Shown piece by piece: positions 4,586 through 10,519 of a DNA stretch of 64,000 nt; position 1 is the first letter of the stretch, and each line of letters starts with the position of its first letter. This DNA is from Escherichia phage RCS47. The position numbers and the translations under genes are program-made. The DNA is taken from the sequence record NC_042128.1; one strand, given 5' to 3'. Under the pieces are notes generated by a model that was not told the origin of the DNA, ran no database searches, and saw only the letters and a list, made by a program, of their open reading frames with translations.

Positions 4586-5147
4586 ATGCTGATCGGCTAT
4601 GTACGCGTATCAACAAATGAACAAAACACTGCTTTGCAACGAAATGCCCTTGAAAGCGCAGGATGTGAGCTAATTTTTGAGGATAAGGCGAGCGGCAAAC
4701 AGACTGAACGCCCTGGGCTAAAAAAGGTTTTGCGTATGCTTTCCAGAGGTGACACCCTGGTCGTATGGAAGTTAGATCGTCTTGGGCGCAGCATGCGTCA
4801 CTTGGTTGTGCTGGTGGAAGAGCTGCGTGACAGAGGAATTAATTTCCGGAGTCTCACTGACTCTATCGACACCAGTACACCAATGGGGCGCTTTTTCTTT
4901 CACGTAATGGGGGCGCTGGCAGAAATGGAACGTGAGCTTATCGTTGAACGTACACGCGCTGGACGTGATGCAGCTCGCGCAGAAGGTCGTAATAGGTGGG
5001 CGTCGGCCTAAATACCAAGAAGAAACATGGCAGCAAATGCGGCGATTGCTGGAGAATGGCATCCCCCGTAAGCAGGTTGCAATCATCTATGATGTGGCTG
5101 TTTCCACGCTTTATAAGAAGTTTCCGGCGTCGTCATTTCAATCCTAA
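4586..5147 (+). pseudogene. cin: Cin/Gin/Pin/Hin-family serine DNA invertase, interrupted by a +1 frameshift near 4990-4992
   Basis: N-terminal resolvase catalytic domain (MLIGYVRVSTNEQ...) in frame 1 stops at 5011; C-terminal HTH domain (GGRRPK...IPRKQVAIIYDVAVSTLYKK) continues in another frame from ~4980 to 5147; removing one A from AA at 4991-4992 restores ...AEGR-IGGRRPK... Confidence 0.8.
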
Positions 5148-5164
5148 ACCTTGGTTTAAGAGAA
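5139..5164. other. recombination crossover site (cixL/gix-like, 26 bp)
   Basis: caatcctaaacc-tt-ggtttaagagaa: two 12-bp half-sites around a 2-bp core, matching the Hin/Gin/Cin site pattern; overlaps the invertase stop codon. Confidence 0.7.
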
Positions 5165-5297
5165 CTCGGTACCAGCGGTGAAAAGATCCCCCTGTTGAGC
5201 ACGGCTAACACATGGAGTGCGCGCCAGACTTTCAACGGAGGGATCACCGGGGCACTGACAGGGAACGCCGACACCGCGACGAAATTGAAAACAGCAC
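5153..5297. repeat. left inverted repeat of invertible segment
   Basis: near-identical reverse complement of 9013-9157 (encodes ...GEKIPLLSTANTWSARQTFNGGITGALTGNADTATKLKTA in both fiber variants). Confidence 0.85.
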
Positions 5298-7056: not shown

Positions 7057-7589
7057 CATTCAGGTTGTTCGGGAAATGTTACTGGCAGGCTGGAGGTGTC
7101 TGTAGATTCGACTTTCTGCGCATAGAGCATCCACTCAGTTAATTTTTGTTTATTCTCGTCGGAAATGATGCCCAGCCGTAGCTGTGAGTCCCATAGCTGG
7201 GTTTTATCCCTGACAAGTTGCAACAGGCTTTGTTTTTCATTCTCTGCCTGCTGCCTTTGTTCCTCCTCGGTATAAGTTCGCTTTATCACTACGCCATCTT
7301 TGAACATCCATTTACCCGAAATATCAGCCCGGCGATTTGCTGTAATATCAGGAACCTCAACGACGCTTGCGCCTTCTGGATTAATTGCTGAAACATCCTT
7401 TTCAATACAAATAATAACGTCGTTGTGGTCATAGACCATTTTCAACGTATCAGGCTGAAAGTTCTTTTGTTCCTCATACCAGTTTTTCCCATCCTCTGTA
7501 TAAAGCCATTTGATGTTAAATTGTTTCGTTAGCTGGTATTGCTCTTTTGTTTTAGGGTTGCCAGCAGTAATGTTTTTTAAGTGCATCAT
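7056..7589 (-). CDS. tail fiber assembly protein (U)
   Basis: 177 aa Tfa-family chaperone immediately downstream of the expressed tail fiber. Confidence 0.8.
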   Translation of the reverse strand: MMHLKNITAGNPKTKEQYQLTKQFNIKWLYTEDGKNWYEEQKNFQPDTLKMVYDHNDVIICIEKDVSAINPEGASVVEVPDITANRRADISGKWMFKDGVVIKRTYTEEEQRQQAENEKQSLLQLVRDKTQLWDSQLRLGIISDENKQKLTEWMLYAQKVESTDTSSLPVTFPEQPE

Positions 7590-7591
7590 CG

Positions 7592-10519
7592 TTAAATACT
7601 CCCCGCGTTATACCACGTCCCATTAATGCAATACTGAATTGGCCTTGCCTGAGTTGTATCAATTAATTCATCACGGTTTCCGTTAACTGAACCTGTAACG
7701 ACATAACCTGACCTGTCAGACCAGCCGGGACCATTCCATGTCTGAACAGATGACAGACCGCCCAGGCGAATACCTGTAATAAACCTTGAGTTACATTCTG
7801 CCTGCGTATATGCACCAACATCCCCCGCAGAGGGTTTGCGGGTTGTGGTGTAAAACTCTGACCAGTTAGCTTCAAAGCCATAACCATCACGCGCTGAACG
7901 ATAAAAGATACCGCCGTTCTTATAATTCACGCGGAACTGTACAGCAGGGCAACTCCCCGCATTCATATTGAAGTGGAGGATTAATGTCGATGCGCCACTG
8001 ATATCTGCATCATAAACGCCGCTATTCCAGTTCCAGCCAACAGCTTTATCATTTGCAACCCTGCTTCCTGTTTGCCCTAAAGCAAATGCAGGCTGCTGGT
8101 TTTTCGTGTTGTAGTCTCTTCGCCAGCCAGGAGCATAAGCATCACCATGATTAATATAAGTGAATTGAGCGTTAGTAATTCCGCCACCGCTGGACGTGCT
8201 CGGCGTAGTAACGCGTATGGTCATTGCGCCGCGAGTGCCAATAACTTCCACCACAGCACCTGCAAGACAAATATTTCCGCAACCTGTATCTGTAATGACC
8301 TTATTATTTGCATAAGCCCATGAGCCTTTGCACATCCAGTAAGGATGGTTAAATGCTCCCTGACTCTCCAGCCACGAAATAAATTGCGCGGTTGTCCAGA
8401 CCTGACTATCGCCACCAATATTCAGCCATGCGCTATATGCGCGGCAGGCACCAATATTTTTGGTAAAGGTATCTTTTCCCGGAATATCTGCGCCGTTCTG
8501 GTTTTTCTGTAATGCTCCTGCGGCTAATTCTACAGTTTGCTCAAGATTTAAATCTGCCGCCGTTAGCTCAATATTTTTAGAACCGTCAAACGAGACACCG
8601 TTGATAGTACACGCCGTCTGCAATTTGGTCGCTGTAGCCGCATTACCAGAGGTGTCCTGATTCCCTTTGGTATTAACGCCGGGAACGGAATCTTTTGACG
8701 TATAGATCTGTGCCCATTCGGACCATGCCGCAGCAGTGATATCTCTTTTGGATCGAATGAAAGCTGGTGCATGAGCGCCATTTGTGCCACTCCAGCCAAT
8801 GAGCAACTCGCCTTCACCAGTGGATGCAGCTCCCTTCAGGTGAAGTACATTCCCGTAAGTCGTCGGATAACCATTGTTGTATGCCTCATACATCTGCAAT
8901 CCAGTAGCAGCACCTTGCGTTGTACCGGTAAGCGCAGTAACGCGTCCTCTAGACGTAATTGTTGGTATCGAAATGTTCGTAGAACCATCGAATCTGACGC
9001 CATTAATGTTTATGGCTGTTTTTAATTTCGTCGCGGTGTCGGCGTTCCCTGTCAGCGCCCCGGTGATCCCGCCGTTAAAAGTCTGGCGTGCACTCCATGT
9101 GTTAGCCGTGCTCAACAGGGGGATCTTTTCACCACTGGTACCGAGTTCTCTTAAACCAAGGTATTGGATAACAGCAAGAACGCTTGTTTTGGCCAGAATA
9201 TCGCGACCGACTGACGTTAAATCAGTCTGCGCTACCGTATCCTTACCGGTGAAATAAGGCAGTTTGTTTGCACCAGTCGCAAGGCCAGCGAGCGCGGTTA
9301 AAGTTGCATCCAGAGGCTGTTTGCCTGCCAGCGCATTTGTCATTGTTGTCGCAAAGTTCGGGTCATTACCAAGTGCTGCGGCAAGCTCATTCAGGGTATC
9401 AAGAGCTTCTGGTGATGAACCAACCAATGCGGATATGGCAGCTCTTACATAAGCGGTCGTAGCAATCTGCGTGTTATTCGTACCCTGTGCAGCGGTAGGC
9501 GCAGTAGGTATTCCCGTTAATGCAGGACTTGCTAAAGGCGCTTTAAGGGCCAGAGCATTGTTGACAGTTGTGCTGAAATTCGGGTCGTTATTGATCGCAG
9601 CAGCTATTTCTTTAAGTGTATCCAGTGTGCCAGGTGCACCGTTGATAAGTGCAGTTATAGCTGCCTTAACAAAGGCTGTATTTGCTATCTGCGTGCTGTT
9701 TGTACCTTGCGCTGCCGTCGGCGCGCTTGGCGTTCCTGTCAGACTCGGGCTTTCTATTGGCGCTTTGGTATCAGCCAGATCTTTTATAGACTTAACAGCT
9801 TTAGGGGTAGCCGCCATTGTTTCGCTGTCGCTGTTAGTTGCGCTACTGAGCTGAACTAATCCCTTTTGCGTTATGCTTGCATCCTGCGCCGTATACTTGC
9901 TTTTCGCCAGATCGTAGGCTTTTTTAACTGCCAGCGAACTTGCAGCAACATCACTTCTGGTACTGGTTACAGAGTCTGAAATATCAATGCCGATCGTGCG
10001 GTTGATACGCTCGGATGTATCAATCATCTCCTGGGTAATGGCAGATACACCAGCAGGGATATTCACCGTACAAACAAGCAGCTCCCCATCTCCTAACTGA
10101 TATGAATCGGTATAGGTTCTGGCAACAAATTCAGCCGCATGAATATGTGACGCGGTATTCACCTGATAGGTATCTTCTCCAAGGAGGTATCTTCCCTTCA
10201 GCACAATTGCATATTTCTTGCCTGCACTAAGTGCAAGAGAAATATCCTTACGTTGCTGAATAGTTACCTGGTAGAATTCACCAATATCCACCGACGCCGC
10301 GCCTGCGGTTTTATCACCATCCACTGAGGTGATTAACAGGTTCATCCCACCGCCAGGCTTAGGTAAGAAACCGGCATAAAATCCCGGGTCAACAATCCCC
10401 CTGAATTTTCGGTTTAGCGCGGCTGACAGATATGGTTCGTGGTATTGCACATCAGCCACCAGAGCCAACGACTCGGGTGATGGGTAAGTAACCGATGTGA
10501 CAACTGTAACGTCATTCAT
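7592..10519 (-). CDS. side tail fiber protein (constant N-terminal part 10519-9160 fused to variable C-terminal part 9157-7592)
   Basis: ~975 aa; repeated fiber motifs (GNADTATKLKTA.., TxAQGTNxTQIAxTA..), start taken at MNDVTVV with upstream GGA RBS; crossover site lies in frame inside the gene. Confidence 0.85.
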   Translation of the reverse strand: MNDVTVVTSVTYPSPESLALVADVQYHEPYLSAALNRKFRGIVDPGFYAGFLPKPGGGMNLLITSVDGDKTAGAASVDIGEFYQVTIQQRKDISLALSAGKKYAIVLKGRYLLGEDTYQVNTASHIHAAEFVARTYTDSYQLGDGELLVCTVNIPAGVSAITQEMIDTSERINRTIGIDISDSVTSTRSDVAASSLAVKKAYDLAKSKYTAQDASITQKGLVQLSSATNSDSETMAATPKAVKSIKDLADTKAPIESPSLTGTPSAPTAAQGTNSTQIANTAFVKAAITALINGAPGTLDTLKEIAAAINNDPNFSTTVNNALALKAPLASPALTGIPTAPTAAQGTNNTQIATTAYVRAAISALVGSSPEALDTLNELAAALGNDPNFATTMTNALAGKQPLDATLTALAGLATGANKLPYFTGKDTVAQTDLTSVGRDILAKTSVLAVIQYLGLRELGTSGEKIPLLSTANTWSARQTFNGGITGALTGNADTATKLKTAININGVRFDGSTNISIPTITSRGRVTALTGTTQGAATGLQMYEAYNNGYPTTYGNVLHLKGAASTGEGELLIGWSGTNGAHAPAFIRSKRDITAAAWSEWAQIYTSKDSVPGVNTKGNQDTSGNAATATKLQTACTINGVSFDGSKNIELTAADLNLEQTVELAAGALQKNQNGADIPGKDTFTKNIGACRAYSAWLNIGGDSQVWTTAQFISWLESQGAFNHPYWMCKGSWAYANNKVITDTGCGNICLAGAVVEVIGTRGAMTIRVTTPSTSSGGGITNAQFTYINHGDAYAPGWRRDYNTKNQQPAFALGQTGSRVANDKAVGWNWNSGVYDADISGASTLILHFNMNAGSCPAVQFRVNYKNGGIFYRSARDGYGFEANWSEFYTTTRKPSAGDVGAYTQAECNSRFITGIRLGGLSSVQTWNGPGWSDRSGYVVTGSVNGNRDELIDTTQARPIQYCINGTWYNAGSI
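9013..9157. repeat. right inverted repeat of invertible segment
   Basis: reverse complement of 5153-5297 with a few mismatches. Confidence 0.85.
9146..9171. other. recombination crossover site (cixR/gix-like, 26 bp)
   Basis: ttctcttaaacc-aa-ggtattggataa; inner half-site is the exact inverted copy of the inner half of the left site. Confidence 0.7.

Follow-up and report, generated by a model that had tools for sequence, protein, structure and literature searches.

Tail-fibre switches of the Cin type work as has been described for phages P1 and Mu since the 1980s. The C-segment of P1, with its invertase Cin and crossover sites cix, was reportedly described by Iida and co-workers in 1982, and the corresponding segment of phage P7 is annotated in GenBank. 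We analysed a stretch of 64,000 nucleotides (nt) from Escherichia phage RCS47 (NC_042128.1; hereafter the window, whose numbering is used throughout), which carries a segment of this kind next to a damaged copy of its invertase gene, cin. We found that, within the lineage marked by this damaged gene, the segment has flipped despite the broken cin, and that the exchange took place at the cix core.

The region 4400-10700 aligned with phage P7 (AF503408 / NC_050152) in one piece, with 100% coverage and 99.4% identity; several E. coli plasmids matched it as well as P7 did. For this locus the P7 record annotates cin and an enhancer inside it, cixL with its crossover dinucleotide, Sv', U', U, Sv, cixR, Sc, R and the late promoter LPs. 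Collinearity with P7 (its positions 30.7-87.5 kb) extends over the whole window, with about 50 kb in blocks of 96.6-98.5% identity and with modules replaced in par/rep and elsewhere, which places the window among the Punavirus (P1/P7) phage-plasmids. From these similarities we put at about 0.9 the probability that we are dealing with a P7-type C-segment, the invertible Cin/cix element of a P1/P7-like phage-plasmid. The preliminary description of this DNA had proposed a host-range switch of the Mu G / P1 C-segment type, a proposal supported by the identity with the P7 locus, by cix sites identical to those of P1 and by the presence of both junction types among relatives (see below). Given the near identity of the region to an annotated P7 locus and the collinearity of the window with P7, the switch itself is already known.

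A base-by-base reading places cixL at 5139-5164 (plus strand), where it overlaps the last codons of cin and reads CAATCCTAAACC TT GGTTTAAGAGAA, and cixR at 9146-9171 (minus strand), where the reverse complement reads TTATCCAATACC TT GGTTTAAGAGAA. Each site has 12-bp half-sites of imperfect symmetry (8/12) flanking a TT core, at 5151-5152 in cixL and 9158-9159 in cixR; the P7-annotated crossovers, carried onto the window, fall on exactly these dinucleotides. The sites agree at 22 of 26 positions, are inverted relative to each other, and as 26-mers are identical to P1 cixL and cixR, respectively. The coordinates and make-up of the two sites had been given in the same way by the preliminary description. 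Allowing three mismatches at most, the 24-nt pattern shared by cixL and cixR matched only these two places in 64 kb (0.00 expected from shuffled sequences), and no extra or quasi cix site was found in the window at this threshold. A 14-nt match at 7780-7793, considered as a further cix site, was dismissed because it is only partial.

The sites are backed by inverted-repeat arms (left, 5141-5338; right, 8972-9169); the left arm codes for the N-terminal stretch that the two variable fibre segments have in common. Inward of the cores the arms are 93.8% identical over 145 bp, in agreement with the repeat length of about 145 bp proposed earlier, and 87% identical over 198 bp in a repeat scan; they contain an exact stretch of 44 nt (5177-5220). 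Outward of the cores arm identity drops to 31%. A second inverted repeat (5363-5491 / 8537-8665; 129 nt, 88%) is displaced, because the two variable parts differ in length by 282 nt. The recombinational enhancer, sis, is predicted inside the 5' part of cin at 4604-4671, the position annotated in P7; its sequence shows no difference from P7 and is identical to the annotated P1 enhancer at 69 of 72 positions. Comparison of these elements with the experimentally defined ones of P1 thus shows that the cis-acting part of a Cin switch is, to judge by its sequence, complete and identical or nearly identical to that of P1.

The genes follow the plan of a tail-fibre switch, with a constant N-terminus outside the segment and two opposed C-termini inside it, each with its own chaperone. 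The fibre gene S presently runs on the minus strand from 10519 to 7592 and encodes 975 amino acids (aa); a look-up of this protein by exact sequence gave no match. It is composed of the constant part Sc (9158-10519; about 453 aa) and the expressed variable part, named Sv in P7 (7592-9157; 521 aa), and is followed by the expressed tail-fibre assembly chaperone, P7 U (7056-7589, minus strand; 177 aa, intact). The silent set lies on the plus strand and consists of a variable part, P7 Sv' (5153-6496; 447 aa), and its chaperone, P7 U' (6497-7027; 176 aa). Pfam searches found Phage_fiber_2 repeats in S, including Sc, a Gp34_trimer domain in the silent variable part and Caudo_TAP in both chaperones. 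When 5152-9158 was inverted in silico, an open S of 901 aa resulted, ending in Sv' and followed by U', and the junction peptides of the two orientations are the same for 64 residues beyond the crossover site. The earlier claim that the reading frame is preserved in both orientations thus holds, and a 901-aa S also exists in nature (see below).

The expressed variable part is 86% identical to P1 Sv' overall, rising to 98-100% in the final 100 aa, and its C-terminal 317 aa are 95% identical to Mu S'. The expressed chaperone shares 99% of its residues with Mu U' and 95% with P1 U'. The silent variable part has 74% identity to P1 Sv and 65% to Mu S, and in these comparisons a central patch diverges to just 33-56%; the silent chaperone matches P1 U (98%) and Mu U (95%). 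By orthology, therefore, the expressed set corresponds to P1 Sv'/U' and Mu S'/U', and the silent set to P1 Sv/U. The Sv/U and Sv'/U' labels of the preliminary description follow the P7 record correctly, but they are swapped relative to P1 and Mu, because the fibre and chaperone orthologies run the other way. As a practical warning, primed fibre names of the P7 record should be read as the unprimed ones of P1 and Mu, and vice versa.

Relatives carry both orientations. A 651-nt query representing the in silico inverted junction matched 5 complete E. coli plasmids over its full length at 98.9-99.8% identity, and the present junction likewise matched 5 records among complete E. coli genomes at 98.8-99.8%. 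The preliminary description had named, as evidence against a switch, a single orientation ever being observed even with a functional invertase supplied; among close relatives the two junction types stand at five to five. In one of the relatives, GCA_017721875.1, a 186-aa Cin accompanies an inverted segment, and the 901-aa S is identical to our predicted product at 892 of 901 positions. Separately, in a P1-like plasmid contig with an intact cin (AATOGP010000018.1 of GCA_012990725.1, positions 17915-17950) the whole C-segment is missing, and Sc is joined straight to the 3' end of cin, the joint being a hybrid site that combines both outer half-sites, TTATCCAATACC-TT-GGTTTAGGATTG. This is either an aberrant invertase-mediated event or an assembly problem, since conservative recombination between inverted sites cannot yield a deletion.

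As DNA, the serine DNA invertase gene cin (4586-5149, plus strand) shares 99.6% identity with its P7 counterpart. It carries an extra A at 4991 (CGTATAGG changed to CGTAATAGG) and a substitution, T4965G, which replaces leucine 127 by arginine (L127R). The product is 141 aa long (4586-5011) and has the Resolvase domain alone (E = 8e-51); the helix-turn-helix domain, HTH_7, is intact but lies in the +1 frame (about 5007-5147). Removal of A4991 restores a 186-aa Cin with both Resolvase and HTH_7, which is identical to P7 Cin at 185 of 186 residues and can be aligned from residue 1 to residue 182 with two Gin structures, 3uj3 and 4m6f (E = 2e-88). The open reading frame of an intact invertase, which an autonomous switch would require, is thus missing, and the hint of a defective invertase in the preliminary description is borne out by the frameshift at A4991. 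The truncation bears on the autonomy of the switch rather than on its homology, because the cis elements are intact. We conclude that cin in the lineage of the window is, as read from its sequence, a frameshifted pseudogene with no DNA-binding domain in its predicted product. We considered whether Cin might work as a split protein, made of the N-terminal fragment and of a 71-aa GTG-initiated reading frame with HTH_7 (4932-5147), and set this aside for lack of a convincing ribosome-binding site and because the domains of serine recombinases are not known to act in trans when on separate chains.

The insertion is absent among the matches listed in collections of annotated plasmids and complete E. 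coli genomes (about 500 records), as every best cin match spans one base less than the query. A 30-mer specific for the frameshift had no match in IMG/VR, JGI metagenomes or GTDB representative genomes. The exact 141-aa product was found in 6 public contigs, including the assembly GCA_965265255.1 and the Logan assemblies of the sequencing runs ERR2205918, SRR21096940 and SRR21096736; the frameshifted allele is also present in GCA_044097205.1. All five carry both T4965G and A4991, and neither change is seen in P7, P1 or two close plasmids. Since the same allele recurs in a further two assemblies and in three or more SRA runs, we take the cin frameshift to be real and to mark a lineage. On the cin side, the lineage sequences could be compared with the window over 2-5 kb and showed 0-3 differing nt. 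On the other side, about 2 nt across 9200-21000 distinguish GCA_044097205.1 and GCA_965265255.1 from it, and their divergence from the window is limited to the ant/immunity region (21000-24142).

These near-clonal plasmids carry the segment in the opposite orientation. In GCA_965265255.1, cin and cixL are followed by the other arm and then by Sv (window 9169 to 8170, minus strand). Sequence markers are those of the cin side up to 5147 and those of the right arm from 5176 on; because flank and arm markers switch there, the exchange is placed within 5148-5175, an interval of 28 nt that contains the core. The contig concerned is 93,375 nt long, and at its far end it shows the reciprocal junction, in which Sc and cixR are followed by the left arm, and there a 901-aa S precedes U'. 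In GCA_044097205.1 both hybrid junctions are found on one contig, again with a 901-aa S and then U'. Since the opposite orientation is present in sister plasmids that share this cin allele, the segment is not simply locked. We note that the contig of GCA_965265255.1 (CBDHON010000020.1) both begins and ends within Sv, at points equivalent to positions 7626 and 8170 of the window, leaving about 540 nt of the fibre tip unassembled. This gap may reflect a second, identical copy of the fibre tip in the host, in another prophage, which would fit an invertase acting in trans.

The three sequencing runs point in the same direction. Logan contigs are assembled with k=31 after k-mers seen once are discarded (PMC12424806), and in these runs the cin contigs end at window positions 5175, 5177 and 5175. 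We simulated the k=31 graph for genomes with a fixed orientation, with mixed orientations and with one hybrid junction. The simulated cin unitig ended at 5206 with a fixed orientation, at 5175 with mixed orientations and at 5177 when the parental arrangement was accompanied by just one retained hybrid junction. Because the observed ends are exactly those simulated for mixtures, the three read sets appear to carry hybrid junctions.

It could be argued that the switch is dead, the frameshift having locked the segment on the fibre that resembles P1 S' and Mu S' and turned the other set into a silent relic. The 141-aa Cin without HTH_7 favours this explanation, and so do two observations that weigh against our own: the window itself shows one orientation, and a tblastn search of the 64-kb window for a second invertase found none besides cin. 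It also has to be said against our reading that the k-mer argument presumes that no second element in the samples provides the hybrid 31-mers, and that receptor specificity is extrapolated from P1 and Mu orthologs, to which the silent fibre is just 65-74% identical. A dead switch, however, leaves unexplained the two near-clonal plasmids with the same cin allele, the opposite orientation and both reciprocal junctions, as well as the mixed-orientation signature in three read sets; moreover, the genes of the supposed relic are fully open. We therefore regard a dead switch as unlikely.

A flip requires a catalyst, and we think it probable that in the frameshift lineage this is a compatible invertase acting in trans, such as Pin, Gin or a P2-like enzyme, from a resident prophage. 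The identical 177-aa U chaperone occurs in 3,327 indexed blocks of the public collection. The ten matches listed for the U cassette fall in P1-like elements, in prophages of the P2-like and Mu-like kinds and in at least one further tail-fibre locus on E. coli chromosomes, and most of these listed copies adjoin an intact Din-type invertase with Resolvase and HTH_7 domains, together with gix-type sites with a TC core. U, its partner chaperone and the fibre tips thus appear, from their sequences, to be a widely shared and exchangeable host-range cassette. Action across elements is documented: the e14 segment can be inverted by PinQ, the invertase of a different prophage (PMC12529663), and an entry in the reference list of that paper (van de Putte 1984) concerns a Mu gin-complementing function on e14. 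An invertase supplied in trans is plausible, because the cassette adjoins intact invertases in E. coli prophages and because such cross-action is documented.

Alternatively, the broken gene itself might still yield some enzyme. A low-level +1 ribosomal frameshift at CGU-AAU-AGG-U would give a full-length Cin with the changes L127R and I136N. The motif AAU AGG U was made by the insertion and lies six codons ahead of the new stop; AGG is rare and slow, while an abundant tRNA serves the +1 codon, GGU; and beyond this point the HTH frame is undamaged, with 100% identity to P7. Rare AGG codons are known to promote +1 shifts, as reportedly in work by Spanjaard and van Duin in 1988 and at the Ty1 and Ty3 sites. 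However, the P-site codon is not slippery, as tRNA-Asn is unable to re-pair on AUA, the upstream Shine-Dalgarno-like sequence is weak, and an invertase acting in trans accounts for the same facts by known biology. We consider such recoding improbable. If it did occur, the cin mutation would be a natural attenuator, and the plasmid would flip itself at a lower rate with no helper invertase.

The inverted arms might also have recombined by themselves. RecA-dependent homologous recombination between the 145-198-bp arms, which are 94% identical over 145 bp and include the 44-nt exact stretch, could in principle have produced the different orientations of the lineage. The position of the exchange argues against this: in both GCA_965265255.1 and GCA_044097205.1 every arm marker from the first one (5176) onwards is that of the partner arm, which puts the exchange in 5148-5175 and not in the longer identical stretches, and the Logan contig ends in three more samples point to the same interval. 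RecA-dependent exchange is therefore very improbable. An artefact, by which the extra A or the inverted repeats would be errors of sequencing or assembly, has next to no probability: although the single-base insertion is missing from the annotated collections described above, the allele recurs in independent assemblies and runs, A4991 is the sole frame-breaking single-base insertion or deletion in any coding sequence across about 50 kb aligned with P7, and the repeats, whose origin in assembly had been allowed for in the preliminary description, are present with their sites in P7, P1 and hundreds of plasmids.

With an invertase supplied in trans as the favoured catalyst, the switch would operate as follows. 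A Din-family serine invertase would cut both 26-bp cix sites at the TT core, helped by the Fis-bound enhancer inside cin, and the resulting flip would swap the receptor-binding end of the fibre in frame. The late-promoter operon, with R and Sc, would be read over cixR into whichever variable fibre end and chaperone face Sc. Its promoter, LPs (10995-11014, minus strand; for R, S and U), has the sequence annotated in P7, and its first gene, R (10531-10965, minus strand), corresponds to P7 gpR, relatives of which have the Pfam domain Phage_P1_tail_fiber_R. Between the convergent chaperone genes lies a GC-rich hairpin (7033-7052), which matches the consensus and is a candidate terminator for U on the minus strand. 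In the present state the phage would make the 975-aa fibre with a tip like that of P1 S' and Mu S' and its matching chaperone; in the flipped state its fibre would have 901 aa and resemble P1 S and Mu S. The S fibre of P1 serves for E. coli K-12 and C, and E. coli O111 is also among the hosts reported for the two forms of P1. The S' fibre requires O-antigen and is active on E. coli O3 and on Shigella flexneri serotypes 2a and 5a (bioRxiv 10.1101/2022.07.24.501295). From the orthology with P1 and Mu and from that report, we infer that the phage of the window now has an S'-like tip and that inversion would change its host range.

Truncated or altered cin genes have been reported earlier in P1-like plasmids, among them a partial cin in pSvP1 (MN510446), and were assumed to disable the switch (PMC6906374). 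Our results suggest that this assumption does not always hold. This is a modest addition to a well-understood system; its value lies in a natural lineage of P1/P7-like phage-plasmids that has lost its own invertase and still has the segment in both orientations. If the invertase of a resident prophage is indeed responsible, the host range of a phage-plasmid would depend on the other prophages of its host, which would bear on the spread of the resistance genes often carried by P1/P7-like phage-plasmids, and on delivery vehicles of the P1 type with a chosen fibre.

We also compared the rest of the window with P7. The 6.3-kb region of the switch has 36 differences from P7, including +A4991, T4965G and C7309, and 28 of them cluster at 9221-9427 in Sc, about 200 bp just outside cixR. 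In sequence, this patch looks like the product of recombination from another S allele; the same patch is present in both GCA_044097205.1 and GCA_965265255.1. Downstream, sit (13666-17088, minus strand) has a 30-nt in-frame insertion relative to P7 at 14717-14752, and its 1140-aa product is found in 123 indexed blocks of the public collection.

Two genes encode TnpB proteins of the IS200/IS605 family, with OrfB_IS605 and Cas12f1-like TNB domains (16-438 and 24257-25432, both plus strand). The first is cut by the window start, is 382 aa long in GCA_965265255.1 and lies between ddrB and the darA operon, with no counterpart in P7. The second lies after repL in a stretch that does not align to P7, where P7 has rapA/rapB. 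The partition and replication module at 32027-36659 shows no alignment to P7 at the DNA level; it encodes ParB (32083-33084), ParA (33101-34297), a T5orf172-domain protein (34466-35275) and a Rep3-type RepA (35568-36452), suggesting a different incompatibility or partition type on a P7-like backbone.

A 1095-aa bifunctional DNA methyltransferase (40249-43536, plus strand), with a C5 DNA_methylase and a D12 N6-methyltransferase domain, is a homolog of P7 dam and P1 dmt. It contains a 340-aa in-frame insertion (40483-41502) with Hint_2 and LAGLIDADG_3 domains, not found in P7, which by its sequence features is an intein. Its boundaries, ...GGTP/CFTAGHMV...VVHN/CQAFS (slashes mark the limits), fall in the catalytic PCQ motif of the C5-methylase, the +1 cysteine being the catalytic cysteine. 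Three tRNA genes (44210-44363; 46364-46439) were assigned to Asn, to Thr and to a CAT-anticodon tRNA called Met by ARAGORN, the last being at the end of a replaced stretch, in the part matching P7 where tRNA-Ile is annotated. A gene for an SPFH/Band-7 protein (45509-46336) takes the place of P7 terB and small open reading frames.

Among the known tail-fibre switches, Min of p15B also belongs to a P1-related plasmid, where an invertase resembling Cin exchanges the ends of the tail fibre. Min, however, rearranges several segments by means of six crossover sites; with just two sites in 64 kb, the locus described here is not a multiple-inversion system like Min or the R64 shufflon. The P-segment of e14, with PinE and the cross-acting PinQ and PinR, is likewise a Din-family switch of prophage tail-fibre ends, but it is 1.8 kb long, belongs to a cryptic chromosomal prophage and has other fibre genes and sites. 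The Mu G-segment, with Gin and gix, agrees in architecture and function, its U' being the near-identical counterpart of our U; it differs in the gix core (TC as opposed to TT) and in its half-sites, its constant part is short and unrelated to P1 Sc, and its invertase lies on the opposite side of the operon. The P1 C-segment has the same gene plan, identical 26-bp sites and chaperones 95-98% identical, and repaired Cin differs from P1 Cin at 4 of 186 positions. It is longer than ours, however (4,256 bp); the silent fibre of the window lacks about 87 aa of P1 Sv, and the inverted repeat of P1 is roughly 0.6 kb long, compared with about 145-198 bp here. The closest system is the C-segment of P7, which shares with the window the 4,007 bp between the cores, the orientation of the deposited record and the flanking genes (lydC upstream; R, 16, bplA and sit downstream). 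In P7, in contrast to the window, cin is intact, without +A4991 and L127R, and U is split into Ua and Ub, because a T stands where the window has C7309 and creates a stop codon; the laboratory P7 sequence may thus carry a nonsense mutation in the U chaperone, which is whole in the window.

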